Shown here piece by piece: positions 2,840 through 51,912 of a stretch of DNA of 57,118 nt. The position numbers were made by a program, and so were the translations under genes. The stretch is from Candidatus Omnitrophota bacterium (GTDB lineage Bacteria; Omnitrophota; Omnitrophia; Omnitrophales; Omnitrophaceae). The notes beneath the pieces were generated by a model, which saw nothing but the letters and a program-made list of their open reading frames with translations, had not been told where the DNA came from and did no database searches. The first letter of the stretch is position 1. Each line of letters starts with the position of its first letter. The stretch covers positions 1 to 57,118 of the forward strand of contig JAKQXH010000080.1 in assembly GCA_029561555.1 (NCBI GenBank), given 5' to 3'.

Positions 2840-2985
2840 AAAACATGCGTTTCAATTTGTTCCCGCAAAAACGAGCGCTGCATTATACCTCATTGCGGCG
2901 AAATAAAGAAAAAAGCCGGAAAGCCAAATTCGGCTCTCCGGCTTTTCCCGAATCACACGGAAATAAACGGGCTAAACCGCTTCGC

Positions 2986-30100: not shown

Positions 30101-33100
30101 GGAATGAAGATTCCACCAGCTTCTCAAGGTCGCTTCTTTTCCGCTGGGCAATTTTAATTTCAACGGCTTGCCCGGATCGAGCGGGACCCAATCGACGAGC
30201 GCGTGAGGATCCAGTTTTTTATCGATAAATTTCAACAGCAATTCCGCCTTTCTCATGAATTCTTCGTAAACAACCCGGGAAGCGATCAGGCGCACGCGTT
30301 TGCCCATGAGAATTCTTTTCAGCACGCCTCCGTCATGATCCTGATGCGCGTGAGTCAGAAGCACATAGGGGACATCCGCTTCTCCCAATCCCAGCTCTTT
30401 CATGTAATGAAGCCCTTCATGGGAAGGATCCACCCATATTCCCAACCCTTCAAGCCACAAAATCATGCTGGTCGTATCTCCCTGGGGATCAAAGCCGGTG
30501 CTGGTTCCGATCCATGTCCGGGCAAATCCGTCCCGCATCTGCTGAATCTGCGCGGCGGCCTGAGCCGGAACCGGATAATGTTTGGGTTCCGGTAAATCAT
30601 ACCGGACGGGAAGCTGGCCAAGGTCTTTATCGGCCCCGTCTTTCGTTTGGGTCACCTTATAACCGGCAATTTCCCCGTCTTCGGCGCGAACCCTTCTGAT
30701 GTTAATAACCCCCGCCGTCATTTGATTTTCGGCAGGGATAACGACTCTTGCCTGATCGTTCCGTTCCTCGAAAGGAATCATTTCAAGGTATCCCTCGACC
30801 GGAATGATTTTTCCGTCTTTGGAGCGAATCGCATAGTGGTTGTGCATGGCTTTCAGGAAATTCCGGTCTTTCTCCGAAAGCCAGGGGTAAACCGCCGGGT
30901 CGCTTAAATCCGGGCCGAAAAGGGTATGACTGAGATATTCCCTTAAAGCCTCTAGCTGCTCCTTCGTCCCCACCACCTGCGGTTTGGGAACATTCGGATT
31001 GAAAAGACTTCCCTTTACGAACGCGTTGAAATAAATCAAAAACTCCATTTCCCCGTATGCCCGGTTATTCACAAAAAGCTGGGGAGGCAGAACAAAAACA
31101 TACTGTTTTCCGGCGCTGAGATCGCCGAACCCGCGCATCATGTCCTTCAGCGTGTTGGAAACGGCACCCAGGAGAACTTCAACGCCAAGGTCTTCGCTCG
31201 GAACCTTCGGGTAACTTCCCTGACCTAAACTTGCCGCGACTGCAGCCGGCGCGACTTCGACAAAAGCCGCTCCTCCTTTGCTCCGCATCGTCACGATCGA
31301 CTTTAGAGTCCCCAACTTAAAGCCCGGAATGTTATGAACCGCTCTTCCCATCACCTGCAATCGATCGATATAGGGCATATAAAATTCCCTCCCGTTGCCG
31401 GAAAAATCGACGATGTAATACTCGCTGTCTCCCCGGAAAAAAGCAATCCCGACGCAAACCGGAACGGACTCTTCTTCCGTTAAAATAATCAATCTCGGAA
31501 GGGCAAAACTTCCTTTCGCATTGCTCCATCCGATAGATTCCAAACCGGCATTTCTCAGCAGGTCGGAAAACGCCTTTAATTCATTCCCTTCCAGTGAAAG
31601 CAGTTTCTCGCTCCAATTATTTCCGGCGAAGTCTTCTCCCAGGTCGCTTTTCCCGTCCCGTAAAGAAAATCTGTAGGCTTCTCCGCCCAGGCTCTGGCCG
31701 ACAAGAATTTCCGGCACAAAAAAGTCCGCGCCCGCCTCCGCACCGGCCGGTTCGACTGTCAATCGGTATGCGCCAATCCGGCTGGTTAACTCAAGCCGTA
31801 ATTGCCGTCTGACCGGACGCGCGGCCCGAGGAAAGTACACCGCAAAGGTTGTAGCGGCCTCAAACTGACCCATGTTTTGAACATCTGCCCTTTCACCCGT
31901 TTTCCCGTTAACCAAAGCGACGGAAACCCCCCGAAGACTGATCGAAGGATCAAAAACTCTCGCGCTGACCCGTAATGCCTGCCGCCCCACTCTCCAGGCG
32001 GTCAGCTCAATATGATCGCCGACTATTTGGTTCTCACCGCCCACGCCGGGAAACTGAAGTTGAGTGAGCATTGTACCCAGTTCGTTCAAGGCCGCTTCCA
32101 ACTCGTCGCCTTGATCCGCTTCCGTTCCCAGGCTTGACGCCTCGCCAAGAAAAATTTCCGGCTTAGGCTTTGCCGCCAAAAAGTCATCCAGTTTCCCGGC
32201 AAGAACGGGATATTGCCCGCGAAAATCCTCGTCGCCGCTTAACTCTTCATTATTTCTCCAAACCATATCCGTCGCCCGGGCAACCGCCCCGCTGTCCGTT
32301 TCGCTCAATCCTTCCAGATCCTTTCGTTCTCCTTCCTCAAGAACCGAAAGAGCCCGAGCGGCCCTGTCCAAGCGGGCCGAAAGGAAAGCGTCCCCGTAAG
32401 GCCCCATGCTGAAATCAAGAGCCCAATCCGCCACCTTTTGCAAATCGTCCAGATCATACTGAAATACCGCCTGCATCAAAGCGGTCAGCGGATCCGCTTT
32501 GGAGCAGTCCGCGTCCGGGTTGGCGTAATATTCGGTTTGAACCATGAAATAAACTTCCGTGCACCAGTAATCCCAGTAAAGCATCAGATAATTCGCCAGC
32601 GCATACATCGGCAGAGTCAGCTGGGTCAAGTCGACCAATTGATCGATCTGTTTACGGTTGTAACCGACCAACCGGCGGATATGTCCTTTTTCCACAATAT
32701 AGCGAACCCAGTCTTGAAGCCGCAGAGGGATAACTTCCTCGTCAATGGCTTGCGCCACATCGCCCCGGCGCCCTAACTGCACGAATTCATACAGCATTTT
32801 TTTGAGTTGAGAACGGTCCCAGGTGTCCTTCCCGCTCAGTTCGCCCAAAAGTTTGCGGAACCGCTCGTCAATTTCAGTGGGCGTCTCCTCGACCAATCCC
32901 CTCTCCTCCCGGATAACCGCCGGAATCTTGCCGACAAATTCTTCCACCGTCGCTTCATTGATGTTGTTCGCTTCGATAAATTCCTGCGTCTTTTTCATAA
33001 ACACAATCATGTCGCGGACGATTTCGGGATCCGTGATCTGATGCATCTGCTGGACCCGATCCAGCAAAATTTTGAATTCCCCCGTCAAGATCGGCAGATA

Positions 33101-36100
33101 CGCATAAAACACGTCCGATGACCCGCCGGCCATAAAACGATTCGCCAAAGGCAACGCCTGCCCCATCAGATTCATCAATTCCTCAAACTGGCGCGGAATA
33201 ATCCTGAAAAGGACGCCCCAGTCCTCTTTTAAAAGATGCTCAACCCATTCGTCCGCCGAATTAGGAAGCCTCTCGGGTTCCATGATGCGGATCCCGTCCC
33301 GTTCGACTTTCACGGCTTCCCTTAAAATTTCGGTGATCCGGTCTTTGGAAAGATTCGGCGCGTTCAGCTGACTGAGAAAATACTGCGCCAGATCCCGTGT
33401 TTCCTCAAAAAGAGTCCCGCCCAGATATTGACCGACTTCCTGCGCGAACATGTCCGCATCCACCTTATGATCCATCCCAAGCGGCAGGCTGGCGGCCCCG
33501 TAAACATGGGCATCCGTCACATAGTGATAGGCTAAAGTTTTTCTTTCATCATAAACGCTTCCTTTTTCCGCCGCGGCAATCAGGATGTCCGCGTAAACAT
33601 GCCGCCCGTCAATCAGGGCTTCTTTTGCACGCAAAAACTCGGTGATTTTTGCCTGTTCGTCCGTCCTCAGCGCCCGGAAACGGACCAGGTCTCTCAGAAT
33701 CGCCACATATTCCACGGTACCGGACTCCTTGGCCTGCCGCTTTGCGGGATCCGTGATATCCCTCTGGGCAGATTGATTCAACGTGTATTTCAGGCGGTAA
33801 CGGTCGATGTGATGCGGAAGCAATTGATTCGCAAGGAAAAGTTCAATGGCCTCGACATCGGGATAATCAAAAATTCTCCAGTTGATCTCAATAACATTGT
33901 CCTGGCGTTTGGATCGTCCCATCACATCAAGATCGTTTGTAAAACGGATCAGCCGAGTCGCAAAAATCCTCTTGGCGTCGCCGTTCTGCGCTTCAACTGC
34001 CCTCAAGAAAGCCTCGGCTCTCTCGGTGCCGACAAAACCAGCCAATTGTTCCTGGACCTGCGTAAAAAGCCCTTCTAAGTCTTCGAGCTCTTCCGCCGGT
34101 TTTGGGAGAAACCCTTCCGCGCCGGCTTCCGGCCCCGCAAGTTGGAGATGTCCCTTTTCCCCTCCTAAGCTCGCGGCCTGCGCCAGTTTCCGGACCCAGG
34201 CTTCTTTCACGCCTCCGGAGCCCTCGATTCTTTGCCCTTCAGGCGTTTGCCTCCAAGCTTCTTCGATCCGTTCTCCCGTCAAAAGCGCGGCGTTCGGATT
34301 GTCGGAGGTGAAAAACCACGCGCCCGTTTTATCCATTTTTTTCGCGCCCAATTCGGTCGCGATCAGAACCGTCCGCGGCGCAAGATACAACGCGCTCGGC
34401 GTGAACGGAGGGTTCGGTCTGCCGGGAAAAGAGTCCGCGGCACTTTCGAGTTTATGCGTTTGATCCCCCACCATAACAATGTTCACCGTGTCCGGATTCA
34501 TCGACCGCTCGATCACGTTCCCGGTCTTCTGTGTCATGGACCACGGCGGAGTGCCGATGCCCGACGGATCGCGTTCGGCCGAAAAATAATTCAGTAACTT
34601 CTGGAATTCCCGGATAAATTCCTCCTCCGATTCAAAGCGGTAATCCCGTTCCAGATAGTTTTGGATATCCTCGAAGCGGTGCGTCATCGAGAAATTCAGG
34701 AGGTCACTCACAAAATTGATCCCGAGTTTTCCCATCAGACGCAAAAATCCCTTGTGAAATTTCATGTCTCCGCCAAAATGGCCGAAGTTCTGCACCTGCG
34801 TCGTCTCGCTGTGCCGCTGCAAACCATCCGCCTGAAGAATCGAAGCCGGATAATCGAAACGCGTGAGCGTGTCGGGGAGATCAAGCATTTTCCGGAGATC
34901 CGTTATAATCTCCCCCATTAAAGCGATCATCCGAAGCTGAGATTCGGTAAACCCGTCATGGCGGCCCGTCCCCAGCCCTCTTAAATTAACCAAAGAGGTT
35001 TCGGGCTCAAGCGCAAATCGCGACATGTTTCTGATAAAACGGTCCTCCGCCTCCCCGTAGGACCCGAACAAAACCGGGGGCGACACAAATCGCCGGTCAA
35101 GCTCTTCTTCCGTCCAATGCGGAAGCGCGTTGCGAAGCAGCATGTATTTCTGCTCGTTCCGGTAGGCGCCGAGTTCATATTTCAAACGATAGGCTTCTTC
35201 GTCGAATTTCTCCCGATCCCAGGGATGAGGTGCCGGCCACCAAAAGTCATCCAACCCCAATTTTTTCAGCACCTCCGGATCCCGCCAGACATAATCGTCC
35301 AATGTATGAACGCCCCGGGCCTTGCCCCACTCGGGATGCTGGTTAAAAACTTCTTTGGCCAGATTCATAAGCCCTAACACTTTGCGAAGAGACTCTGTCG
35401 TCCCGCCCGTCGCGAGTCCGAATGTGAATTCCCTCTGCGCCATTTCCATAAGACGCAAGATGACATACATTGCGGCATAGGTCATCGCATTATCGTCTTC
35501 AACGATAATTTTGATAAACCCCGGCCGGGGATCCAGCACCAGAGCCAGAAGCTTTTCTTCGTTGATGTATTCAAGTCCTTTGCCCTTCGGAACCAACAGG
35601 CCCGTTGCGCGATACCCCTTGCCGTTGAAGCGATAGACTTTCTCATGAGTCGGATTCATGATCAGGCGCTTCGCGTCCGGGAATTCCTTCCGCACATTGG
35701 CCGGAAGAATCAATCCCGACGTCGCCGCGCTTCCCAAACTGCCGGCGTCAACCAGCCGGACTGCGTTGTCCCAACTTGCGGGAGTGTCTTCGGCTCCTTG
35801 ATATGGTTTTCCGGTTCTTTGCTCTTCGCTTGATCTCACAAAAGCGATTTGCATCGACATTAAAATATCCCGATACAAAGCCCTGAAAGCTTCGATCACA
35901 TCATTGATTAATTGATTGCGCTGTTCATTGCCGGGATTCCCGAAAACATTGAATATCGCGTTCAAAGCCAGAAAAGACTCTTTTAATTTCGGCAAATATC
36001 TTTCGACCACTTTCCCGTCAAAGCCTTTCTCCGTTTTAAAGCGTTCGAGCACGGAAATAATCACCCTTTGTTCTGCGATTTCTTCACCCAGAGTCGCTTC

Positions 36101-39100
36101 TTCTGACGTCAATATTTGGGCCATCGCTTCCACTGTCATCCGAACTCTCTCCGGAAGTCGGGCTTTCGCTTCCTCCCAGGAAAGTCTTGCCCCCAGGCTT
36201 GAAGCAGATTCGGTTTTAGCGGCCTGCAAGATTTCCCGAAGTTGCCGCCGATCCGACATTAACGCTTTAACTGCCCCGGTAATTTGCTCGCCCGTTACGG
36301 ATTCCGTGAGATCTTTTCTCTCCGCAACCGCACCGGAAACTTTCACCTGAAACGCTTCCGCCCCCATTTCTTCAATGGTGGTCGTCAGCAATGCGCCGGT
36401 CAGAAAATTGAGCCCTATTTCGCGGCGGCCAAACATCCTCTCCTCTAGCCCTTCACTCGCGGCCCGTTCTTTCACGGCCTTCGCGATCTCCTGCGCCGCT
36501 GCCGTTTTCAAATTTACATTGCCCAAAGACGACGCCGCTGCTTTTCTGAAAGCGTCCCGGAGCATCGCCCGGTTTCCCGCGTTGTCCACAAGACGCATGA
36601 AAACACCCTGGCCGCCCTGCTCCGCTCTTAAATCCGTCAGCGCCTGATAAGACGCCTCCGCAAAATAATCCCTCACCAAATTCGGGCTCACACGATCAAG
36701 ATACCCCTTGGCAAATCCGATCGCGGGCTTTCCCGGAATCGGATCTTCCGAGACAAAGGAAATAATGAACGGCATGTATTTCTGAGGTTGCGCGAGGACC
36801 TGCTGGTAGCTGATATGCTGATCCCCCGTCCCCTGCATGACCCACTCGATGCCCATGGCGATCAATGCGTCCCGCAAGTCAATGAATTTCCCCCCCTCTA
36901 AATAAATGAAGGGCACCAGTTTTCTTCCGCTTGCACGCGCGGTATCCATTGCCGTTCGGATCAAAAGGGTCAAAACAGCCGACGCATTTTGCGCATTGAT
37001 TTTAGGCATGGAAAGAGTCGCGATTTCCGGGACATTGCTCAAAATATGATGCCCCTGAGCCAAAGACAAAACCTCCCCCAAAGCATTTTGAACCGCTTCC
37101 GGATCGGTTTGGGCCGCCTCTTGCAGGGCCTTCAGGCGTTTCTCCAGAAGTCCTTTTCCCAGCTCCACGTAAGGCTGCCGGACATAAAGATTCTGCTGGA
37201 GAATCTTGGTTGCGTCCTTATCCAGATTGCCAACATCAACGTCTTCCACTCTCAGGCCCGCTTTTTCTATCGCGCGCGCGATCAGGCGATTGCCGACCGT
37301 GGCCGTCATACCGTAAAAAATCGTGTTGAGTTCCGCAAACGCTTCGGCTAACGCCTGCTTGTCCCGGGTTTGAAGATCCGGGAGGCGGAAATAATAGGTC
37401 GGATAATCCGCCTCGGAAATCATGCGCGATGAGAGATTGATCACCAACTTATTCTTTGCCCCGCGATAATGTTTTTCCTGGGCATCCCAATCGCTTTGAC
37501 GAATCGCAACGAGATTCGCGAATCCTTCCTGCCAAATGCTTTCGTTAAAATTCTGCTCGATCGATTTTCCAAACCAGAAATACTCGTCGGGAACGACCAG
37601 CGCGATATCCGTGACCTCCCGGTCGAGGACCGCGTTCCCGAGCCTCACGCCCGCATGAATCCCTTCCCGGACCTGCTCGACATTTTCATGCCGCACCCTC
37701 CAATACCGCTCCGCATCCAAATCATGAAACGCGAGAAAGGTCATCATATGGAGGTCTCCCGTCCAGCGCCCTCCCACATTATCGAACATGGCCCCGAACC
37801 CCGGCGCGTCTCCTCCCAATTCCCCGTCCAATCCGGAATTCCGGATAAACGCGGACAAACGGCTCTGTTCCGGACGATCCGTCGTTTCAAAAAACATATT
37901 CCCGAGAACGATTCCGAAAATCTTCCTTACCTGCTCGGGCGTAACGCTTAATCCCCTCGCTTGCGCTTTTTGCGAAATCAACGCAAGCAGACTCGTCGTG
38001 CCGAAACGCTCCTCATCCACTTTAAAAAGGTCTTTTCCCGGCCGTTCTTTCCCGTTAACGAAATTCACTTCATGCAATGTCGCAAGTACGGTATCCGCGA
38101 ATTGTTTCCCGGCGATTCCTTGTTTTTCCGAAATATTTTTCAGGATCGCATAGAAAATATCGGTAAAAATCATCATTGTTTCGTCCGTCGAACCCGATTT
38201 CGAACTGGGAATGACCGCGATTTGGTCCCAATCCGCCCCAATCGCTTTCAACGCCGCTGCGATAGATTCCTCATAATTTTTCCCAAGTTCATATTCGCCG
38301 ATAATCAGGCCCGTTGTTGGGTCAATTACCTGAAAGACATCCGCAATCCCCTGAAAAGGCGTGTGCTGGCCGCCGATTCCCGGTTTGATCACATAACGAA
38401 TGGGTTTTCCGAGTCTTTCGGCGCGCCTTGCAAAAAATTGCTTCATGCCCGTTACGGTATCAAGAAACGCCTGTCTCCCCGTTTCTTTTCCGCCGGCATC
38501 GACCGTAAAATATCCCTGATTTCCTTCGAAGGCAAACGAACCGGCCACGGCCGCCCCTTCCGCAACGCCGTAACCGTCCTGTTCGTATCCGCCCTTCTCA
38601 TAGCGTTTTGCCGTTTCCGCATTTCCATGAGCATCAAGCGGGGTGCTCAATGCTTCGGCAATCATCGCGCCTTTTACGGCTTCCGCGCCAAGACTGGATG
38701 CGGCGGCAACCAAAGCGATCAGTTTTTCCACGTCCGGACGAATTAAAGCAAATCCTCCGGATACCGCGGCGGCGTCCCGGCTCATTTCCAAAAACGGCCT
38801 TAAATTTTCCAAAGCCCTTGCCGCGGCGGCAAAATCCTCCCGCGTCCCTTGCCGTGCAAACGCTTCCACCGAATAGAGGACGCCATCCGTTGTCTGACTG
38901 GCCGTGTCAGAGTTAAAATCCGGACCTTTCATGGTTGCCCGGATCGTTTCGACCCATGTTAAAATTTCTTCTCCGAGGGCCGCGCCGGAAGCCAAAGCAT
39001 AAGCCCGCTGCCGATTTCTCTCCAGCTGATCGACCAGCAATTTAATTTGTCCGGCAGTCGGTTTTTCCCTTAAATCCGTTCTCGCCATCACCGCATCCGT

Positions 39101-42100
39101 CACATCGCGAGTCAATTGTTCAAAACCCGGCTTGGCCAAACTGCTCGTCAATAATGCGCCGACCAACAGATTTAACCCGCTGTTTCCTTTCAAAACGTTT
39201 TTCGGGACTCCTCCGCCGATCGCGTATTGTCTGACGATATTTACCATTTCCGCCGCAACGGCCGTTTCCAAACTCACCTGTCCTTCCGCGCCAAGACTCG
39301 CGGCCTGGGCAGGAGGCTGATAAGTGTCCTCCGGCAGTCCGTCACGGTAATACTCCTGATACGCGTCCCACCCCTTCTCCATCCCGTTCGTCACATACTC
39401 TTCGGGCACAAATCTCCCGTGCAAAGCCGTAATCTCCCCGCTGTAGCCTCCCAACACCGCCGCAAACCTCGCCAGCTCCTTCTTATTATCCCCCATCGCG
39501 TATGACTTCGACTTCGCGTCCGTCCCGGACGGCCGGATCTCCAGCACCTTGTTCGGGAACTTGAAAAACACCCCGTCTCCCACAAAATATATCCCCTCCA
39601 GGTCGCTGAAATCCAACCCCTCGTCCCGGAACGCGTCATTCAATATCTCGATCACCTGCTCCTTCGTGAGCTTCCCGTCCCGGTGCGCCAGCGCCATACT
39701 CAGGAAAAATACGTAATTCTTCGTACGTCTCCCTTCCCCTTCCTTCTTATCCGCCTTCAGCGCGTCAGGATCGGGATTGTTCTGATTGTAATAAACCGTG
39801 TCCTCTCTCACGTCAAACCGCGCCTTGATGTCGTTCGCGTCAAACAGCTCCTGCAGATAATCCGACAGCATCTTCCCCTGCGACTCCAAATGCGCCGCCA
39901 TCGCTGCCTGGATCACCAACGCCTCTCCCGCGCTCTTCTCCCGCATCGCGATCGCCTTACGGCCCCCGACGCTCTCGATCAGCTCCTCGGGACCGATAAT
40001 CATCCCTCCCGACTCTTCTCCCGCGAACAGCATCCTCGGATCCACTCCCAGATTCACCTCTTTCCCGAATACGTCTCTCACGATCACGGGCTCGCCCGGG
40101 TGATCCGCCATCTGCGCCTCAACCTTCTTCATCATCGCCGCGATTTCCTTGAAGCCTACCGGCACGCTCAGCACCTTCACCCCGTTCTTCTCCGCCCATT
40201 CAACCCATGCCGCGGACGACGCCGTCGTCGTGATGATAAATCTCGGATGGTCCCACCACTTCCTCGGCTCCGTGTACCCCAGCGCTTTCTCTTCTTCCGT
40301 CAAGGCCCTCTTCTTATCGCTCTTCGCCGCCTTCAACGCCTCAGCCTGATACACCATCGTCATGAAAAACGACTGGTTCGGCGTGTACAACGCCACAATC
40401 CTCTTCTCATCCAATACCAGATAATCCACTCCCACAGACCTCAAAAACTCTATGCGGTCTGCCGACTCCACCTGCGCCGTCACCAACCGGTCCCCGTCGG
40501 GGTCCGTCATCAATATCGTCGTCCCAACAGGCTTGTCCGCCAGCAGCTTGTCGTAGCCCATTCGCTCCATGACCGGGATCGACTTCACCTCTCCCGTCTT
40601 TTTGTCCCGCTTGATAATCGTCGTATCCTGCGTGTAGTCGTTATACTTCCCGTCTTCCGTCAATTCCTTGCCGATCCCGTGAAAATACGGGTCCTCCTCA
40701 ACGTGCAGCCACTCGAACGAGTCACCGATCCCGAGCCGCTCAAATATCTTCGTCATCGTCCGGTGCATCGACCCTCCGACGCTGTCGATCAGGATCTTCG
40801 AACGCGCGTCACGGATTCGGCCCAGATTCACCTCCGTCGCAACTCCCTTCCTTAAATACTCCACGTACGGAATAATCCCATTCTCAATCGACTTCATGAA
40901 CTCATCGTCAATCAACGCGTCATCCGCAGCCCCGATCTCAAACGTGAACTCCCCTTCGTCGTCCGCTCTCTGAAACGCCTCATGGATCTTCGACACGAAC
41001 TGCACGGACTCCTCAGGCAGATATTGGCTCCCCTGATTGTTGATGTCCTTCGTCGCCGCGAAACTCGACCCCGCGTGTGAACTCGTCGCGTGCTCCGCCC
41101 CAACCAGGTCATACATGAACGCCAAATACGACACCATCCAGATCGGAAGCGGCACCCGCCTCATCACCTTCCCGTGCGCGTCCTCCATCTCCTCGATCCC
41201 GTACGGAACATACGTCCGTATCCCGAGCGCCGCGTTGATACGCGCGATCATGTCCACAAAACGGCCCGTGTTGTATCGGACTTCCCCTCCGGCCATCTTA
41301 CGCAATGCCGCTCCGGGAAACTTCTCATTCACCACCACTCCTTTCGCCCAGGTCGCGAACGCGATTCCGATTTCATTAATACGGTTCCGCGTGTCCCATG
41401 GGTACAGCACGTTCTGCGTCAGCCGGATTCCCGCCGTCGCAACTTTTGCCTCGGCCTCATAATCCTCAAGCCATTTCCACAATCCCAATCCTTCGGGATT
41501 CGTCACAGGATCATAATCGTACAAATGCTCCTTCTTCAACCGGGCCACAATCCGCCCGTCATCCGTAATGTCAAATACGGGGTTCCCGGCCTTGATATGC
41601 GCCGGTGTCTTCTCGTCCACCTGCGCTAAATACACGTCCCGCAAATTGGGCCTGACGGGGCCCAGTACCGGCGCTCCGCCCAGCGATGCGCCTTTTGAAG
41701 GAATAAAAGGATCTACCAATCGAATATCCCTGCGAATGTCTTCGAGAGAACGCGCGCTTGCTCTTGTTGTGCTGAAAATCTGAACGGTACCGGTCCTTAT
41801 CCCTTCAACAATAGCCGGTGCGCCCATCAAGCGCCTAAAAACACTTTGCGCGGACGGCCCATCCCCCGGTAAAAATTGATCGACAAAGAGTTCTTCCCCC
41901 CTGCTGCCCGCCAACAGTTTCGTCAAGCCTTCAAGTTCTTTTCCTTCGATTAACCGAAACCGATCCCGATCTTCTTCTGAAATCGGACCCACTAAAAGCA
42001 ACTTTCCCTCTTCATTTTTATAAACCGCGACCCATCCATTTTGAATGCGCGGAATAACCCGGTTTCGGGCAAGCACCGACGCAATTTCGCTGTCTTTTTT

Positions 42101-44305
42101 GGGAAGAGCTTGATGCACGGCGAGCCTCGGATAAGTCTGTGCGGGATATCGTGAAAAAAACACCTGCAATCCTTCTTCCCGGCTCAAGGGAGAATAATCG
42201 CCGAGAGACGCCGCTTGGGGAAGGTTTTGAATGCCGGCGGGTTGTAAAACGGCCGGCGGCAATGACCCCAAATTCAATCTTCGGAGTTCGTCGTTCGTCG
42301 AAACAGCCTGAACGTCTCCGGCCGGAGAAAGTTTTCTATCGAGAGGCTGAATCAAAACCAGCGGATAATTCCCCCTGACGCGCAAAACATCCGAGGGAAT
42401 CAGCGCAACGGCACGGTTTCCGGTATCTCCGTACGCCGGGATAATCCGTACCCCGTCGTCACGGACCAAAGGATTTTGCTTCAGTTCGTCAAAATAACGG
42501 TTTAAAGCATCGACAAAAGCATTCGGATCGGTTTGCAGGGAAGGGTTTGTGTTGAGCAAATGCTCGGCAAGAGGCGCCACCGCATAAATCAAGGCGCCTA
42601 AAGCGACCTTTTCCTGCCGGATCGGATCGCCCGGGTTCAGCTCCGCATAGACTTTTTGATCCACCGCCTTCAAGGCCGCCACGATTTTGCCTGCCGCAGC
42701 GGATTCGCCGGATTTCGGCGCCGTTTCCCCGAGAAATTCTTCAAGCCGGGTTTTCCCGTTGAGAATTGTTTTATGATAATTTCCCGTTTTGTCTTCCTTT
42801 GATAATTTGGGCTCGATCACCACATGGGCGATATTTTGATCCTCGAGAATTTTCTGAATTCCCTGCGTATGGAACCCGCCCGAAATCAAGACAGCGTTTT
42901 TGAGTTTCTTTTCCCGCGCTTTTCCGAGCAACCGCTCGATAAAGGCGTGTTCGCGCTCCATGGCAAGATCGTAAAATGCCTGCGCGTCCTGAATCGCCCG
43001 ATCGGTTCCGCCGAGGGACTCCTTTTCTTCCGAATCCGAAAGGGTATTCAATGAAGCTATTTTTGCCGCCAAACACGAGGCAGTCAGTTCTTTCTCTCGC
43101 GATTTAAACGAAAGATATTCTTCCCTCGAAACCTCGAGGCGGAGGAATTTCTCAAGAAGCTTCAGATCCCGGCTGATTCCGACGATGGTCCGTTCTTCTT
43201 CCGTCCGGATCAAGAATTCATAGATCCCGGCTTCCAGGGCGGTGATTTCGTCGAAGAAATCTTTCGCGTCGATTTCATCCTGAAGAATGAGATATTTGGC
43301 GAAATTCCCGAATGCCGGATAGGTCTCCGGGGAAATATTCCGTTCGGCGCAGATCCCGTAAAGCGCTTCGAAAAAATATCTCGCCGGAAGCGGCCGGTCC
43401 CAACCGAGGCCTTTCAAATCTTTCAGCGTGGCAAGAACAAATTCCCGTTCGGGGTCTTTTCCCGAAACGCCGTCCTGAATCGCCCGAATCAACGCTTCCT
43501 TTTCTCTCAGGGCCCGATCCGTGTTCTTCTTCAATTCCGGCTCTAACCGCGCGAGAACCGACAAACGGACCAGATTGGGGAATTCACCCTGCTCTTTGGG
43601 GTCCGTAAGGTCCAGCTTCAAAAATCTTTCGGCGGCCTTCCTTAAGTAGCGGCCGTAGTGGAAAAGCGTGTCTTTCCCGTCGCCGAACGCGTTTTTCTTC
43701 GCGTCAAATTTTCTGAGATCGGAGGAAAATTTCTTTGTTTTCAGCGCGATTAAATCTTTTCCGGCTTTCTCGAAAAATGCCCGGTGGGAATTCCATTTCT
43801 CTAAAGTGGCCCGGTAAATCGCAAGGTCTTTGCGGTAACCGTCCTTGTCCTCAAGACCGATCCAGTCAATATCGGCCCGGCCGTTTTCCACCGCAAAAGA
43901 TTCCGCGCCGGTCAATTCCCCGTCTCTGACCAATGAATCAATAACGGCGGCATTGGCCTTTTCCACGGGGAAGAACCGGAAAAGTTCCGGCCGAAGACTG
44001 CCGGACGCCCCTTCGAGACCGATCAAGCGAACCTGATATTTTTCGACCAACTCATTCAAAATGTTTTTAATATGAAGTTGGGCCTCGTAATTGGCGTGCG
44101 CGTCCTGAATATGAATAATCAAAGGAAGCTCGCCCTCGGCGCGGTAGTTGACCGATCCGGCCTCATCGGAAATCCGGATGATCGAATTCCGGTCGACGAG
44201 TTTTTGGAAACGCAAAGGCATTTCCGCCGGATAAGGCGCCGCTCCAAAAACGTTGGTGACCGTAAAGAAAAAAATAACCCCCGAAGAAAGAATTTTCTTA
44301 AACAT
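27161..44305 (-). CDS. Giant (~5714 aa) exported modular multi-enzyme protein
   Basis: Uninterrupted 17.1 kb ORF. GAGGAGG RBS 7 nt before ATG 44305; signal-peptide-like MFKKILSSGVIFFFTVTNVFGA; 14 xxSLG-type linkers; several recognisable enzyme domains. Confidence 0.95.
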   Translation of the reverse strand: MFKKILSSGVIFFFTVTNVFGAAPYPAEMPLRFQKLVDRNSIIRISDEAGSVNYRAEGELPLIIHIQDAHANYEAQLHIKNILNELVEKYQVRLIGLEGASGSLRPELFRFFPVEKANAAVIDSLVRDGELTGAESFAVENGRADIDWIGLEDKDGYRKDLAIYRATLEKWNSHRAFFEKAGKDLIALKTKKFSSDLRKFDAKKNAFGDGKDTLFHYGRYLRKAAERFLKLDLTDPKEQGEFPNLVRLSVLARLEPELKKNTDRALREKEALIRAIQDGVSGKDPEREFVLATLKDLKGLGWDRPLPARYFFEALYGICAERNISPETYPAFGNFAKYLILQDEIDAKDFFDEITALEAGIYEFLIRTEEERTIVGISRDLKLLEKFLRLEVSREEYLSFKSREKELTASCLAAKIASLNTLSDSEEKESLGGTDRAIQDAQAFYDLAMEREHAFIERLLGKAREKKLKNAVLISGGFHTQGIQKILEDQNIAHVVIEPKLSKEDKTGNYHKTILNGKTRLEEFLGETAPKSGESAAAGKIVAALKAVDQKVYAELNPGDPIRQEKVALGALIYAVAPLAEHLLNTNPSLQTDPNAFVDALNRYFDELKQNPLVRDDGVRIIPAYGDTGNRAVALIPSDVLRVRGNYPLVLIQPLDRKLSPAGDVQAVSTNDELRRLNLGSLPPAVLQPAGIQNLPQAASLGDYSPLSREEGLQVFFSRYPAQTYPRLAVHQALPKKDSEIASVLARNRVIPRIQNGWVAVYKNEEGKLLLVGPISEEDRDRFRLIEGKELEGLTKLLAGSRGEELFVDQFLPGDGPSAQSVFRRLMGAPAIVEGIRTGTVQIFSTTRASARSLEDIRRDIRLVDPFIPSKGASLGGAPVLGPVRPNLRDVYLAQVDEKTPAHIKAGNPVFDITDDGRIVARLKKEHLYDYDPVTNPEGLGLWKWLEDYEAEAKVATAGIRLTQNVLYPWDTRNRINEIGIAFATWAKGVVVNEKFPGAALRKMAGGEVRYNTGRFVDMIARINAALGIRTYVPYGIEEMEDAHGKVMRRVPLPIWMVSYLAFMYDLVGAEHATSSHAGSSFAATKDINNQGSQYLPEESVQFVSKIHEAFQRADDEGEFTFEIGAADDALIDDEFMKSIENGIIPYVEYLRKGVATEVNLGRIRDARSKILIDSVGGSMHRTMTKIFERLGIGDSFEWLHVEEDPYFHGIGKELTEDGKYNDYTQDTTIIKRDKKTGEVKSIPVMERMGYDKLLADKPVGTTILMTDPDGDRLVTAQVESADRIEFLRSVGVDYLVLDEKRIVALYTPNQSFFMTMVYQAEALKAAKSDKKRALTEEEKALGYTEPRKWWDHPRFIITTTASSAAWVEWAEKNGVKVLSVPVGFKEIAAMMKKVEAQMADHPGEPVIVRDVFGKEVNLGVDPRMLFAGEESGGMIIGPEELIESVGGRKAIAMREKSAGEALVIQAAMAAHLESQGKMLSDYLQELFDANDIKARFDVREDTVYYNQNNPDPDALKADKKEGEGRRTKNYVFFLSMALAHRDGKLTKEQVIEILNDAFRDEGLDFSDLEGIYFVGDGVFFKFPNKVLEIRPSGTDAKSKSYAMGDNKKELARFAAVLGGYSGEITALHGRFVPEEYVTNGMEKGWDAYQEYYRDGLPEDTYQPPAQAASLGAEGQVSLETAVAAEMVNIVRQYAIGGGVPKNVLKGNSGLNLLVGALLTSSLAKPGFEQLTRDVTDAVMARTDLREKPTAGQIKLLVDQLERNRQRAYALASGAALGEEILTWVETIRATMKGPDFNSDTASQTTDGVLYSVEAFARQGTREDFAAAARALENLRPFLEMSRDAAAVSGGFALIRPDVEKLIALVAAASSLGAEAVKGAMIAEALSTPLDAHGNAETAKRYEKGGYEQDGYGVAEGAAVAGSFAFEGNQGYFTVDAGGKETGRQAFLDTVTGMKQFFARRAERLGKPIRYVIKPGIGGQHTPFQGIADVFQVIDPTTGLIIGEYELGKNYEESIAAALKAIGADWDQIAVIPSSKSGSTDETMMIFTDIFYAILKNISEKQGIAGKQFADTVLATLHEVNFVNGKERPGKDLFKVDEERFGTTSLLALISQKAQARGLSVTPEQVRKIFGIVLGNMFFETTDRPEQSRLSAFIRNSGLDGELGGDAPGFGAMFDNVGGRWTGDLHMMTFLAFHDLDAERYWRVRHENVEQVREGIHAGVRLGNAVLDREVTDIALVVPDEYFWFGKSIEQNFNESIWQEGFANLVAIRQSDWDAQEKHYRGAKNKLVINLSSRMISEADYPTYYFRLPDLQTRDKQALAEAFAELNTIFYGMTATVGNRLIARAIEKAGLRVEDVDVGNLDKDATKILQQNLYVRQPYVELGKGLLEKRLKALQEAAQTDPEAVQNALGEVLSLAQGHHILSNVPEIATLSMPKINAQNASAVLTLLIRTAMDTARASGRKLVPFIYLEGGKFIDLRDALIAMGIEWVMQGTGDQHISYQQVLAQPQKYMPFIISFVSEDPIPGKPAIGFAKGYLDRVSPNLVRDYFAEASYQALTDLRAEQGGQGVFMRLVDNAGNRAMLRDAFRKAAASSLGNVNLKTAAAQEIAKAVKERAASEGLEERMFGRREIGLNFLTGALLTTTIEEMGAEAFQVKVSGAVAERKDLTESVTGEQITGAVKALMSDRRQLREILQAAKTESASSLGARLSWEEAKARLPERVRMTVEAMAQILTSEEATLGEEIAEQRVIISVLERFKTEKGFDGKVVERYLPKLKESFLALNAIFNVFGNPGNEQRNQLINDVIEAFRALYRDILMSMQIAFVRSSEEQRTGKPYQGAEDTPASWDNAVRLVDAGSLGSAATSGLILPANVRKEFPDAKRLIMNPTHEKVYRFNGKGYRATGLLVPKGKGLEYINEEKLLALVLDPRPGFIKIIVEDDNAMTYAAMYVILRLMEMAQREFTFGLATGGTTESLRKVLGLMNLAKEVFNQHPEWGKARGVHTLDDYVWRDPEVLKKLGLDDFWWPAPHPWDREKFDEEAYRLKYELGAYRNEQKYMLLRNALPHWTEEELDRRFVSPPVLFGSYGEAEDRFIRNMSRFALEPETSLVNLRGLGTGRHDGFTESQLRMIALMGEIITDLRKMLDLPDTLTRFDYPASILQADGLQRHSETTQVQNFGHFGGDMKFHKGFLRLMGKLGINFVSDLLNFSMTHRFEDIQNYLERDYRFESEEEFIREFQKLLNYFSAERDPSGIGTPPWSMTQKTGNVIERSMNPDTVNIVMVGDQTHKLESAADSFPGRPNPPFTPSALYLAPRTVLIATELGAKKMDKTGAWFFTSDNPNAALLTGERIEEAWRQTPEGQRIEGSGGVKEAWVRKLAQAASLGGEKGHLQLAGPEAGAEGFLPKPAEELEDLEGLFTQVQEQLAGFVGTERAEAFLRAVEAQNGDAKRIFATRLIRFTNDLDVMGRSKRQDNVIEINWRIFDYPDVEAIELFLANQLLPHHIDRYRLKYTLNQSAQRDITDPAKRQAKESGTVEYVAILRDLVRFRALRTDEQAKITEFLRAKEALIDGRHVYADILIAAAEKGSVYDERKTLAYHYVTDAHVYGAASLPLGMDHKVDADMFAQEVGQYLGGTLFEETRDLAQYFLSQLNAPNLSKDRITEILREAVKVERDGIRIMEPERLPNSADEWVEHLLKEDWGVLFRIIPRQFEELMNLMGQALPLANRFMAGGSSDVFYAYLPILTGEFKILLDRVQQMHQITDPEIVRDMIVFMKKTQEFIEANNINEATVEEFVGKIPAVIREERGLVEETPTEIDERFRKLLGELSGKDTWDRSQLKKMLYEFVQLGRRGDVAQAIDEEVIPLRLQDWVRYIVEKGHIRRLVGYNRKQIDQLVDLTQLTLPMYALANYLMLYWDYWCTEVYFMVQTEYYANPDADCSKADPLTALMQAVFQYDLDDLQKVADWALDFSMGPYGDAFLSARLDRAARALSVLEEGERKDLEGLSETDSGAVARATDMVWRNNEELSGDEDFRGQYPVLAGKLDDFLAAKPKPEIFLGEASSLGTEADQGDELEAALNELGTMLTQLQFPGVGGENQIVGDHIELTAWRVGRQALRVSARVFDPSISLRGVSVALVNGKTGERADVQNMGQFEAATTFAVYFPRAARPVRRQLRLELTSRIGAYRLTVEPAGAEAGADFFVPEILVGQSLGGEAYRFSLRDGKSDLGEDFAGNNWSEKLLSLEGNELKAFSDLLRNAGLESIGWSNAKGSFALPRLIILTEEESVPVCVGIAFFRGDSEYYIVDFSGNGREFYMPYIDRLQVMGRAVHNIPGFKLGTLKSIVTMRSKGGAAFVEVAPAAVAASLGQGSYPKVPSEDLGVEVLLGAVSNTLKDMMRGFGDLSAGKQYVFVLPPQLFVNNRAYGEMEFLIYFNAFVKGSLFNPNVPKPQVVGTKEQLEALREYLSHTLFGPDLSDPAVYPWLSEKDRNFLKAMHNHYAIRSKDGKIIPVEGYLEMIPFEERNDQARVVIPAENQMTAGVINIRRVRAEDGEIAGYKVTQTKDGADKDLGQLPVRYDLPEPKHYPVPAQAAAQIQQMRDGFARTWIGTSTGFDPQGDTTSMILWLEGLGIWVDPSHEGLHYMKELGLGEADVPYVLLTHAHQDHDGGVLKRILMGKRVRLIASRVVYEEFMRKAELLLKFIDKKLDPHALVDWVPLDPGKPLKLKLPSGKEATLRSWWNLHSIPTNGFSIEYDGFRYAHSSDTQWDPAFIDKLVREKKITPNEGRAQKYRFVKKDGTSKFDFIDHEAGGAPIHTTLEMLAQLPDDVRQRMNVYHVPDSKVEEKFGLAKGRMFETTPFISSDTERQQLHEIGVLTSNALMKDKSGDFYDVFQRLARRETVQKGQTLTIQGHRIHVMAFNGFRGLSAEGPEIEGDRGRAYFIVSGVAGVYVDGKKVAELGPSTHFGDWSIVTGEPRTATVVAEEPLEVYSLTPAAYLALFGSPATIERVQWLRENLETLEAWSQNTTKTSQFFQDLSDFALIVLAGEAAERKYKAGETVIREGTTGREFFIVKRGRADVVKGEEEAQHFIASIQPGESFGEIALLRDVERTANVVAGTDLDVLVFTREQLMTLLDHYPLIRMEMERQVDDRILELIRDYVDRPSFKRLVPSVAEFRLLLAHLARKYSGDRMHALLSMMDKTILDLGAGRDAHLVRTLRGLGFSYVRGVDVAVNTVMPYLLQGDMRNLDMIESGTVDVVFITNFLQDDLFYEKYPKDFYERIAREIFRILRPDGRFYLVTGDNADPALEHFRQAGFQVNTLVRGMYELIKPGETVGASLGVTGPSELGKTFSAYEAALKERDALKGTKGVSQDALRQADAKVQTTREAFSGEMQKRGWGALSLPDEEVLRTMRAMEALDKRHDISGQSLGFEAAAQLMGILSAQGRRLFEADGVNRTLTGWIHETGEAGGFFHALYFGAEEVPDAGISDELSGALQMQAESLNPGLGRTAYYREESSEGEFAVLAATAEDISVSALKVQLGVNKLAYAEVVYVGDTGYEKFESDLKRELGDLFGRVELTKVASRDEAVKFLNGLAANPRLRSLGGAGKTVLSQTELAPHITYLASPDIVNGLIASQSVKLATPAEEDLEGISREDFRLYGNTVGFALARLAGDAEKLSKVPGMDQALRKTGRVDLFRFNTDSLAERISQLTGEFQGFLAILRAA
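28331..28800 (-). other. Domain of giant protein: class I SAM-dependent methyltransferase
   Basis: ILDLGAG (motif I), GVDV, QGDMRNL, VDVV, IFRILRPDGRF. Confidence 0.8.
28880..29730 (-). other. Domains of giant protein: two cyclic-nucleotide-binding domains
   Basis: AYFIVSG...HFGDWSIVTGEPRTATVVA and FFIVKRG...SFGEIALLRDVERTANVVA phosphate-binding cassettes. Confidence 0.9.
29770..31222 (-). other. Domain of giant protein: metallo-beta-lactamase-fold hydrolase (RNase Z / cNMP phosphodiesterase-like)
   Basis: WIGTSTGFD, IWVDP, LLTHAHQDHDGG (HxHxDH), LHSIPT, SSDT, HEA, IHTT, VYH. Confidence 0.85.
34178..35731 (-). other. Module of giant protein: glucosamine-6-phosphate deaminase (NagB)-like
   Basis: FGLATGGT (cf. 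GLATGST), TLDDY (cf. NLDEY), GLGTGRHDGFTE (cf. GIGxxGHIxFNE), IVMVGD. Confidence 0.65.
36536..38686 (-). other. Module of giant protein: glucose-6-phosphate isomerase-like (SIS fold)
   Basis: GIGGQ, SSKSGSTDET, ETTD, NVGGRWT, NES, GTGDQH, QPYVELGK. Confidence 0.8.
39305..41677 (-). other. Module of giant protein: alpha-D-phosphohexomutase (PGM/PMM)
   Basis: TAGIR, TSSH phosphoserine loop, DPDGDR metal loop, GEESGG sugar loop, IRPSGT phosphate loop. Confidence 0.9.
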
Positions 44306-44352
44306 GCAAAGCTTCCTCCTCATAATTTGATCTGAAAATTAGATGTGCTTAA

Positions 44353-50466: not shown

Positions 50467-51912
50467 TTAGCGTTCTCCGATTTTATGAATTTTCACCATA
50501 TAGCGGGCGGCAGGCAAAGCTTGCCTGCCGGAAACAATGACGGTCGAGTCCCCCGGCTTGAGGAGCGCCATCCGAAGAATGCTCCGCTCTCCTTCATGCA
50601 GCATCGCATCGGTGCTTCTCCGATAATTCATCTGAAGCGGGGTCACGCCCCAAAACAAATTCAATCTGCGGCAAATCTTTTCCGAAGGCGCCATGGCAAT
50701 AATCTTCGCGGCCGGCCTTAATTTGGAAACCAACATGGCGGTTCCCCCGCTTGCCGTAAACGCAACGATCGCTTTGGCCTTCAAATCACCGACGGCATCA
50801 CAGGCCGCAACCGTAATCGCGTGCACGGGAAGATCTCTCTGCCTGAAAAAACGGCCGCGGTCATGTTCGTCTTCCGCCCGGATATGCTCTTCGGTCTCCC
50901 GGATAATGCGGGCCATGGTCCTGACGGACTCGGCGGGATACTTTCCCATCGCGGTTTCCCCTGAAAGCATAACGGCATCCGTTCCGTCAAACACCGCATT
51001 GGCAATATCCGAGGCTTCCGCCCGGGTCGGGCGGGGGTTTTCCATCATGGACTCCAGCATCTGTGTTGCCGTGATTACCGGAATTCCGGCCCGGTTGGCA
51101 AGAGCAATCAGATGTTTTTGCGTTACCGGAACTTTTTCGACGCCCATTTCGATCCCCAGATCGCCTCTCGCGACCATGATGCCGTCGGCTTCTTTCAGAA
51201 TAGAATTGAACCGTTCCACTGCCTGCGGTTTTTCAATCTTGGCGATAACGGGAATTTCCTTGCCGCGTTTTTTCATCCATCGTTTAACGGTCCGGATATC
51301 CTCTTCGGTCCGGACAAAAGACAGTCCGATATAATCCGCATTCATCGCGGTCGCGATCGAAAGGTCCTGAAGGTCTTTTTCCGTTACGGCGGGGAAATCA
51401 ACCCGCACATTGGGGAGGTTGATCCCTTTGTTTTCCCCCAATGTCCCTCCCGCGAGAATGCGTCCGACAATGCGGTTTTTTTGGAGGCGGATTACTTCGA
51501 CTTCCATCAATCCGTTGTCCAGAAGAATTCGGTCGCCTTTTCCTAAAATTTTGGCAAACTGCCGGCACGGAGTGGTGATGACGGAATCAAACCCGGGACC
51601 GGAAGAGGGCAGAATCGAAACTTCTTTCCCCTTCTCAAGCACGATGGGTTTTCCGCCTTTCAGGCGGCCGGTCCGGATTCTCGGCCCCTGCAGATCAACG
51701 AGTGTCGCAACGTGACGGCCGGCCCGGCGGGAAGCCTCCCGGACCAGATGAAGCCATCTCCGAAGTTCCGGGGGACTGCTGTGAGACGCGTTTATCCTGA
51801 AAACATTCACCCCTTCGCGGATCAGCGTTTTTAAATCCTCGAGGCGCCCGCACGCGGGCCCGACGGTCGCGACAATCTTTGTCCGTTTTTCTCTCAGGCT
51901 TTCGAAAGGCAT
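50467..51912 (-). CDS. pyk: Pyruvate kinase
   Basis: RTKIVATVGP, FRINASH, DLQGPRIR, AKIEK, MVARGDLG, TQMLESM, VFDGTDAVMLSGETAMG. The exact start is uncertain and overlaps the purF stop. Confidence 0.95.
   Translation of the reverse strand: MPFESLREKRTKIVATVGPACGRLEDLKTLIREGVNVFRINASHSSPPELRRWLHLVREASRRAGRHVATLVDLQGPRIRTGRLKGGKPIVLEKGKEVSILPSSGPGFDSVITTPCRQFAKILGKGDRILLDNGLMEVEVIRLQKNRIVGRILAGGTLGENKGINLPNVRVDFPAVTEKDLQDLSIATAMNADYIGLSFVRTEEDIRTVKRWMKKRGKEIPVIAKIEKPQAVERFNSILKEADGIMVARGDLGIEMGVEKVPVTQKHLIALANRAGIPVITATQMLESMMENPRPTRAEASDIANAVFDGTDAVMLSGETAMGKYPAESVRTMARIIRETEEHIRAEDEHDRGRFFRQRDLPVHAITVAACDAVGDLKAKAIVAFTASGGTAMLVSKLRPAAKIIAMAPSEKICRRLNLFWGVTPLQMNYRRSTDAMLHEGERSILRMALLKPGDSTVIVSGRQALPAARYMVKIHKIGER

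Follow-up and report, generated by a model that had tools for sequence, protein, structure and literature searches.

The main finding of this study is that a single uninterrupted open reading frame (ORF) of 5,720 residues carries, from N to C terminus, a phosphohexomutase module, a module resembling glucose-6-phosphate isomerase (PGI) and a module resembling the glucosamine-6-phosphate deaminase/isomerase NagB, which on the evidence of their sequences are probably genuine and active hexose-phosphate enzymes, and which are extra copies, not the housekeeping set of the cell. This giant lies on the minus strand of a 57,118-nucleotide stretch of a Candidatus Omnitrophota genome (GenBank assembly GCA_029561555.1, contig JAKQXH010000080.1), and it is this whole stretch that we call the window. 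A previous sequence-only reading had proposed three sugar-phosphate enzymes at 34178-41677, in the order given above, and this observation is correct and well beyond chance. The segment corresponds to residues 883-3382 of one ORF, begins and ends on S-L-G linker sites (residues 880 and 3385), and consists of three large modules and three small spacers; the mutase is identified by Pfam, the PGI-like module by its fold and the NagB-like module by a family profile, while every motif that had been quoted is present exactly once and is invariant across relatives. Each of the three modules is 1.4 to 2 times the usual size, and Pfam hits neither the PGI-like nor the NagB-like one. The usual catalytic residues are nearly all conserved among relatives—the exception is one NagB aspartate—and the catalytic motifs of the three modules stay invariant in relatives down to 24-31% identity.

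The phosphohexomutase module is the only one of the three that Pfam recognizes, with domains II, III and IV in the correct order. PGM_PMM_III scores above its curated cut-off (E 1e-8, 35.6 bits versus 20.7), whereas domain II (6e-5, 23.9 bits versus 29.3) and domain IV (9e-3, 16.5 bits versus 23.1) score below theirs, and a single-sequence search of PDB gave no match. The four signature loops of the superfamily occur in one copy each and in canonical order, and are invariant in five aligned sequences, one of which is only 31% identical. The module thus shares with known alpha-D-phosphohexomutases (PGM, PMM/PGM, GlmM) both domains II-IV in order and the four loops. It differs from them in its length, 796 residues compared to a canonical 450-560 (about 1.5 times normal), in that Pfam does not detect domain I, and in its phosphoserine loop, which reads TSSHAG instead of T[AG]SHNP. 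The GC skew of this part of the gene is stronger, at -0.25 to -0.30, than that of the rest (-0.13 to -0.19). The assignment is secure at the superfamily level, a level at which the sequence does not tell glucose, mannose and glucosamine phosphates apart as substrates.

The PGI-like module has no match to PF00342 at E <= 1, a single-sequence search of PDB found nothing, and a PGI-family profile searched against PDB gave a chance hit only. An AlphaFold2 model built from an alignment of 25 relatives (predicted local distance difference test (pLDDT) 89.4, predicted template modeling score (pTM) 0.90) nevertheless retrieved, with Foldseek, nothing but glucose-6-phosphate isomerases at ranks 1-44 of PDB, all with a probability of 1.00, E values of 1e-7 to about 3e-5 and target-normalized template modeling scores of up to 0.58. 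As modeled, the module has the double-SIS fold of PGI. Profile-profile alignment of its family with 14 canonical Omnitrophota PGIs covers the first SIS domain only (85-89% probability) and takes in GIGG and SKSG[ST]T.ET. When three further sub-regions were searched separately, the best local match of each was a canonical PGI catalytic motif with identical internal spacing: EQNFNES to Q...ES with its Glu (E = 0.64), QPYVELGK to QPGVE..K with its Lys (0.0023), and GTGDQHIS..Q to GT.D.HS..Q with its His (0.0075), each of which is weak alone. Comparison with canonical PGI (PF00342; 3IFS, 7NSS, 1ZZG) shows similarities—the double-SIS fold, GIGG, the SKSG[ST]T.ET loop, GGR[FYW][ST], and putative catalytic Glu, His and Lys motifs that keep their internal spacing—and differences, since the module is about 720 residues long instead of 420-550 and profile alignment is limited to its first SIS domain. 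The model places the His motif on an additional alpha/beta subdomain at the C terminus. The catalytic His of canonical PGI, which is a dimer, is donated by the partner subunit. Because the extra subdomain carries the His that canonical PGI takes from its partner, an attractive reading of the model is that the module might supply this residue in cis.

The NagB-like module likewise has no match in a Pfam search for PF01182, and as a single sequence it grazed two NagB structures in PDB at E = 0.023. An exhaustive search of 1.84 billion representative proteins returned 26 relatives, mostly within giants and a few stand-alone. A 19-sequence profile of this family matched 12 distinct glucosamine-6-phosphate deaminase sequences in PDB, 11 of them at E values of 9e-14 to 1e-9 and one at 5e-4, in three collinear blocks, with no other enzyme family at significance. 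Invariant in the family are GLATGGT, T-L-D-x-Y, G-x-G-x-x-G-H-x-x-F and a C-terminal Lys. The Asp of TLDDY (residue 3009) is one that we take to be Asp72 of N-M-D-E-Y in NagB, and GLGTGRHDGFTES is equivalent to G-x-G-x-D-G-H-x-A-F-N-E of NagB, its His being invariant and its Glu at least 90% conserved. Set beside NagB itself (PF01182; 4R7T, 2BKV, 1CD5), the module shares GLATGGT, (T/N)-x-D-x-Y, G-x-G-x-x-G-H-x-x-F-x-E and the C-terminal Lys, and differs in its length (523 residues with insertions, compared to about 266), in lacking a PF01182 match and in not conserving the Asp before the His. The coordinates of all these elements are given in Table 1.

Table 1. Position of the giant ORF, its parts and the motifs of its three enzyme modules in the window.
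Feature	Coordinates	Strand	Residues	Basis or remark
Giant ORF	27161..44323	minus	5,720 aa	signal peptide and conserved head first; linkers bound ~15 modules; tail ends in ...LRAA
Predicted Sec-type signal peptide (MRRKLCMFKK, hydrophobic core, VFG/AAP)	44240..44323	minus	1-28	hydrophobicity
Conserved head domain (IHIQDAH.NYEAQ ... LEG ... GGFH)	42209..44239	minus	29-705	in 19/29 homologues
Module 3, long-form alpha-D-phosphohexomutase	39299..41686	minus	880-1675 (796 aa)	Pfam PGM_PMM domains and signature loops
Phosphoserine loop TSSHAG	41069..41086	minus	TSSH 1080-1083	invariant in relatives
Metal-binding loop DPDGDR	40487..40504	minus	1274-1279	invariant in relatives
Sugar-binding loop GEESGG	40004..40021	minus	1435-1440	invariant in relatives
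Phosphate-binding loop RPSGTD	39518..39535	minus	RPSGT 1597-1601	invariant in relatives
Spacer module 4	38696..39298	minus	1676-1876	no family match; part resembles spacer 6
Module 5, long-form PGI-fold enzyme	36530..38695	minus	1877-2598 (722 aa)	predicted structure and motifs
PGI-type SIS phosphate-binding loop SSKSGSTDET	38177..38206	minus	2040-2049	invariant; aligns to canonical SKSGTTTET
PGI signature-1-like NVGGRWTGD	37754..37780	minus	NVGGRW 2182-2187	invariant; canonical DDVGGRFS
EQNFNES, putative catalytic Glu 2261	37538..37558	minus	2256-2262	invariant; Q+4=E-S spacing as in canonical Q..ES
QPYVELGK, putative catalytic Lys 2390	37154..37177	minus	2383-2390	invariant; best local match canonical QPGVE..K
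QGTGDQHISYQQ, putative catalytic His 2503	36800..36835	minus	GTGDQH 2498-2503	invariant; downstream of Lys motif
Spacer modules 6 and 7	35741..36529	minus	2599-2861	no family match
Module 8, long-form NagB-like glucosamine-6-phosphate deaminase/isomerase	34172..35740	minus	2862-3384 (523 aa)	family profile
NagB-type phosphate loop GLATGGTTE	35393..35419	minus	GLATGGT 2969-2975	invariant; aligned to NagB GLPTGGT
TLDDY, catalytic Asp equivalent 3009	35291..35305	minus	3007-3011	T-L-D-x-Y invariant
GLGTGRHDGFTES, His 3122, Glu 3127	34940..34978	minus	3116-3128	aligned to GVGNDGHIAFNEP of NagB

Separate copies of two of these enzymes are present elsewhere in the genome. The source assembly (2.22 Mb, 109 contigs, 83% complete) has no match to PF00342 or to PF01182. 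Its contig C92 encodes a canonical PMM/PGM of 459 residues with the motifs TGSHNP, FDGDADR, GEMSGH and RASNTQP, and contig C107 (2049-4217, minus strand) a stand-alone 723-residue homologue of the PGI-like module that is 57% identical to it, has all of its motifs, and starts with a hydrophilic N terminus and no signal peptide. This stand-alone protein, whose gene lies between PdxA-like and helicase-like genes (both assigned by eye), is probably, to judge from its sequence, the cell's own PGI. Because of the copies on C92 and C107, the mutase and the PGI of the giant are extra copies. The possibility that the giant holds the genome's sole pgm and pgi, which the sequence-only reading had itself named as fatal to its view, was therefore rejected.

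The protein on C107 also led to a larger family. Searching with it returned 60 further protein clusters, and 44 proteins (the query included) are 650-800 residues long. Where these long-form PGI proteins have a source name it is always "hypothetical protein"; a precomputed Pfam domain is found in none of the 44, and 41 lack a hydrophobic N terminus. A scan of one genome per species detected 55 long-form PGI loci in Omnitrophota, Elusimicrobiota, Goldiibacteriota, Sumerlaeota and records labeled Planctomycetales/Planctomycetia, about ten of which are stop-to-stop frames of their own. Of the 10 genomes with a stand-alone long-form PGI, 9 lack PF00342, as do 16 of the 17 with a copy closest to that of the window, compared to 44 of the 151 genomes of the phylum sample (Fisher p values of 2e-4 and 2e-7, respectively); these values weigh less for our interpretation in that they take no account of shared ancestry or of how incomplete metagenome-assembled genomes are. 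Across the 151 genomes, this type of module and canonical PGI do not cleanly exclude each other, most of those with an embedded copy having a PGI-family gene as well; exclusion is seen only for stand-alone copies and the closest clade. The family is also found fused to transaldolase (P0106), to 6-phosphogluconolactonase and 6-phosphogluconate dehydrogenase (P0109), and to PGM domains (P0079, P0113), partners which all act around the glucose-6-phosphate/fructose-6-phosphate node. Transaldolase-PGI fusions are known from annotation for canonical PGI, and ORFs of ~960 residues seen here would fit that architecture. P0106, a protein of 1,235 residues from a public assembly with a C-terminal transaldolase domain and no signal peptide, parallels them. 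A maximum-likelihood tree built from 61 sequences does not separate embedded from stand-alone long-form PGIs but interleaves them, with at least 11 changes of state, at least four of them forced by well-supported branches, and with branch lengths that are alike in the two groups. It follows that, under enzyme-like constraint, cassettes have repeatedly passed between giants and ordinary genes, and this argues against a purely structural or binding role of the embedded copies. Four independent lines—the sub-region matches, the existence of stand-alone proteins, the absence of PF00342 and the fusions around one metabolic node—suggest that the long-form family works as a PGI. No publication on a long-form or permuted PGI was found in a literature search. 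At one locus of another Omnitrophota genome (G088 = G194, contig C42:156846-163869), a canonical PGI module is part of an 11,858-residue frame, and a long-form copy broken by stops and frameshifts lies about 3 kb beyond it; one PGI form may be replacing the other there.

The architecture that surrounds the three modules is itself recurrent. In the giant, the tripeptide S-L-G occurs 15 times compared to 2.3 expected from amino-acid composition, nearly always in the context [AG]-[ASQ]-S-L-G-[GASTN], and A-[AS]-S-L-G linkers divide the protein into ~15 modules. The linker codons vary synonymously (Ser TCN or AGY, Leu CTN or TTR, Gly GGN), so that what is conserved is the peptide and not the DNA behind it, for which reason the idea that the linkers are DNA recombination signals was rejected. 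The N-terminal segment, in which five positive charges precede a hydrophobic core and which ends TVTNVFGAAP, is the sole strongly hydrophobic stretch of the giant, no other segment reaching its score, and the positive-inside rule predicts from it that most of the protein leaves the cytoplasm. In the source genome, open frames that exceed 2,400 residues number more than 30 (e.g., on C38, C65, C96, C36 and C95) and make up about 19% of the DNA. A paralogue of the head (~500-700 residues) starts at least 22 of its giants, with the motif IHIQDAH beginning about 70-80 residues past the start. Those paralogues with complete N termini have Sec-type signal peptides, about ten of which end similarly, commonly in QTV-x-x-[SA]-A-P. 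At the other extremity, Ala-Ala closes 19 of the 34 largest frames, most of those that no contig edge truncates (RIAA, ARAA, AVAA, AAAA, QKAA, ETAA, RTAA, etc.), typically after a hydrophobic and one variable residue, as does the giant of the window (...LRAA, 27164-27175). This ending resembles a C-terminal signal for sorting or recognition that the giants share. The head has no match in Pfam, in PDB sequences or, at significance, in PDB folds (AlphaFold2 pLDDT 78); its best fold hint, to the erythromycin esterase EreC, had an E value of 1.3 and was not used.

Homologues outside the source genome show that the cargo between head and tail is variable. The family consists of proteins of 3-8 kaa (thousand amino acids) in metagenome-assembled genomes of Omnitrophota and Elusimicrobiota, its members being named Omnitrophota or Elusimicrobia, and the Pfam cargo of the homologous giants includes hexokinase, PFK, TIM, PGK, enolase, PPDK, UGPase, transaldolase, galactokinase, PEPCK and others. 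The PGI-like module is the commonest shared cassette (25 of the 29 homologues, 48-83% identity), while a mutase of this type is found in a few and the NagB-like module in two only. About 19 of the 25 giants with the PGI cassette also hold a phosphohexomutase module, some of them adjacent, a count that is biased in that the query contained both. Other peptides occupy the module borders in P0004, P0007, P0008, P0023, P0025, P0028, P0033 and P0039, where [AG]-A-R-L-A (up to 19 copies) and R-S-E-[VLAT]-R (up to 17) take the place of the S-L-G linker; in some homologous giants no peptide recurs. At 63-67% identity, the mutase module resembles modules of giants with such other linker types, and in the sister giant P0003 only a C-terminal piece of it is left, which at 47% identity over 66 aligned residues is the lowest among the shared modules. 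This pattern, together with the stronger GC skew of the mutase part of the gene, suggests cassette exchange or replacement at this position.

We lean towards the view that the three modules are extra-copy, exported and active enzymes in a modular giant, which in the light of their sequences is somewhat probable. The long-form phosphohexomutase would convert hexose-1-phosphate into hexose-6-phosphate, the long-form PGI glucose-6-phosphate into fructose-6-phosphate, and the long-form NagB-like enzyme glucosamine-6-phosphate into fructose-6-phosphate and ammonia. Each cassette would derive from a family of enzymes of which ordinary proteins without a signal peptide exist too, and cassettes would have shifted several times between stand-alone genes and giants. 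The giant itself is built from a signal peptide, a conserved head, a variable enzyme cargo between A-[AS]-S-L-G linkers and an Ala-Ala tail. The enzymes would most likely be exported from the cytoplasm of the producer and act on hexose phosphates of another cell; the place may be the interface between two cells, an enlarged periplasm or the interior of a host, and cuts at the linkers might separate the modules beforehand. The reactions of the three enzymes come together at the glucose-6-phosphate/fructose-6-phosphate node, in support of the sequence-only reading. Its further proposal of a funnel towards fructose-6-phosphate, the direction of flux that we also infer, holds as coherent biochemistry but not as a conserved unit, since the trio is found only in P0003 and the PGI cassette stands elsewhere beside varied enzymes. 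Action within prey that drains cell-wall precursors was an inference of that reading, of which the part that seems plausible is that host-derived sugar phosphates serve as substrate.

Several observations weigh against this interpretation. First, sugar phosphates are not expected outside cells, and other cargo of this family of giants would depend on ATP, S-adenosylmethionine (SAM) or cyclic nucleotides; some cytoplasm must then be involved, possibly the producer's own. Second, in 12 genomes every long-form PGI seen was embedded and a search for canonical PGI gave nothing, and the embedded copy could there be the only PGI of the cell. Third, the three modules and the same spacers recur together only in the closest relative, P0003. 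Fourth, each module departs in some respect from the canonical enzyme. Pfam domain I was not detected in the mutase, and a narrow five-sequence profile of its family found no relative in PDB at E <= 0.01. The order of motifs in the PGI-like module is Glu-Lys-His, that of canonical PGI Glu-His-Lys. In the NagB-like family the position two residues before the His, presumably Asp141 in E. coli NagB numbering, is variable, and it is a Gly in the window. With the His motif displaced and this Asp equivalent variable, chemistry or substrates may differ from those of the canonical enzymes. The modules would act either on the contents of another cell, or in an unusual compartment, or, if the export prediction is wrong, in the producer.

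The last of these options is the basis of the alternative that survives best, in which the giant is a polyprotein of the producer's own metabolism that works, whole or cleaved, in or at the cytoplasm or in an active enlarged periplasm, and serves upper glycolysis and amino-sugar catabolism. It would account for the 12 genomes just mentioned, for the lack of a canonical PGI or NagB in the source genome, for the near-complete glycolytic sets, ATP-dependent kinases included, of homologous giants, and for the fact that embedded modules evolve as stand-alone enzymes do. We consider it somewhat unlikely, however, in view of the charged N terminus and single hydrophobic core that predict translocation of the bulk of the protein, the similar signal peptides of the paralogues, the separate PGI-family gene in most genomes with an embedded module, and the stand-alone PMM/PGM, long-form PGI and pyruvate kinase of the source genome, whose housekeeping functions the giant duplicates.

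The exported-enzyme reading can be taken further, into a proposal that as a whole we hold to be rather unlikely. Signal peptide, head, cargo and Ala-Ala tail would together form a dedicated export chassis for active cytoplasmic-type hexose-phosphate enzymes; these would be released by cleavage at lineage-specific linkers (A-S-S-L-G here, G-A-R-L-A or R-S-E-V-R elsewhere); in or at a host cell they would re-route the pool of glucose-1-phosphate (G1P), glucose-6-phosphate (G6P) and glucosamine-6-phosphate (GlcN6P) to fructose-6-phosphate; and the PGI would have been made self-contained for life in a chain, its His provided in cis by the added C-terminal subdomain.

That the enzymes are active but their combination coincidental—shuffled cassettes without pathway logic, possibly passenger genes of mobile elements, of which the trio is one draw—is quite improbable. 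The restriction of the trio to the nearest relative, the pairing of the PGI cassette elsewhere with very different enzymes, the at least 11 switches between embedded and stand-alone state, and the identity pattern of the mutase with its hint of replacement are what such shuffling would leave behind. Against it, the cargo is almost entirely central sugar-phosphate metabolism, which is no random sample of a proteome, and the ~19/25 co-occurrence with a mutase exceeds the ~11% reported for long Omnitrophota proteins (10.64898/2026.06.07.730766), with the proviso that our sample was selected with both modules. Finally, that the modules are non-catalytic, enzyme folds having been recruited by a surface or adhesion protein to bind sugar phosphates or to act as a scaffold, a role as adhesin having been proposed for giant proteins of the phylum (PMC10066038), would be in keeping with their 1.4- to 2-fold size and large insertions, the failure of Pfam on two of three, the displaced PGI His motif and the unconserved Asp141 equivalent of NagB, but is very improbable given that substrate-binding and catalytic residues are invariant over deep divergence, that long-form PGI also exists as a cytoplasmic stand-alone protein in genomes without a canonical PGI, and that embedded branches are no longer than stand-alone ones.

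The remaining parts of the giant and of the window complete this picture. The two spacers flanking the PGI-like module (38696-39298 and 36200-36529) are 34-36% identical to each other over about 95-120 residues. Module 9 (residues 3385-4063), directly after the NagB-like module, has no match in Pfam or PDB. Module 12 (28325-31231, residues 4365-5333) combines a metallo-beta-lactamase fold with two cyclic-nucleotide-binding domains (E = 2e-32) and a SAM-methyltransferase, domains that one would hardly expect an exported protein to carry. No paralogues of modules 13 to 15 were detected in the other giants of the genome, which share with them only the ...AA ending. The neighbors of the giant in the window are genes for ETF, ETF-QO, DsbD_2, a polyferredoxin, a radical-SAM protein and pyruvate kinase, and no secretion or pilus genes flank it within the window. 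The pyruvate kinase is a stand-alone gene (50467-51981, minus strand; Pfam PK 1e-108), and ordinary single-gene glycolytic enzymes therefore coexist with giants in this genome.

What is at stake is whether the giants of Omnitrophota are housekeeping polyproteins or exported enzymes that act on the metabolites of another cell, and a source genome with both a signal-less and an export-signaled copy of the same enzyme offers a clean experimental handle on the purpose of such metabolic giants. The long-form PGI matters in its own right, as it is widespread (at least 55 species genomes and dozens of protein clusters) and unannotated. If it is an active PGI, the family accounts for part of the "missing upper glycolysis" that has been reported in these phyla and deserves a place in annotation pipelines; its Glu-Lys-His order, if true, would be a new way of building the PGI active site.

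Giant ORFs are regarded as poorly understood (Seymour et al. 2023). Multi-enzyme giants of Omnitrophota have already been described in two preprints; it is the long-form PGI and NagB-like variants that are new. Archaeovorins, with TIM, glucose-phosphate isomerase, FBPase, PGM/PMM and aldolase domains in Omnitrophota giants, were predicted to be extracellular, with post-translational cleavage suggested and extracellular pre-processing of sugars considered (West-Roberts et al. 2023, 10.1101/2023.11.21.568195). A more recent catalogue (10.64898/2026.06.07.730766) groups long proteins into classes, of which the "multi-enzyme metabolic cluster" has PGM among its commonest domains, reports PGI in only 67/176 complete genomes, and describes a multi-enzyme giant of 147,155 residues whose metabolic content is on the periplasmic or extracellular face by topology prediction, its function being left open. 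The giant of the window shares with these proteins its lineage, its signal peptide and the tiling of many distinct enzyme domains in one polypeptide, here mutase, PGI-like, NagB-like, metallo-beta-lactamase-fold, two cyclic-nucleotide-binding and methyltransferase. It differs in that its 5,720 residues are below the size cut-offs of both the 2026 catalogue (10 kaa) and the Archaeovorins (30 kaa), in that it has no internal transmembrane helices, dockerins or cell-wall-degrading Pfam domains, and in that the Pfam-based surveys used there do not see its PGI and NagB modules. The linker motif was not found in either preprint by a look-up of the terms 'linker' and 'polyprotein' (and, in the 2026 text, 'cleav'), which did not extend to the head and the Ala-Ala tail. 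Finally, there is a parallel, in working principle only, with modular secreted multi-effector proteins and viral polyproteins. Unlike in those systems, the cargo here is central metabolism instead of toxins, the head has no significant fold match, and cleavage at the linkers is only proposed; what they have in common is a conserved delivery part followed by a variable array of cassettes, with short recurring peptides, conserved at the amino-acid level, between the modules.

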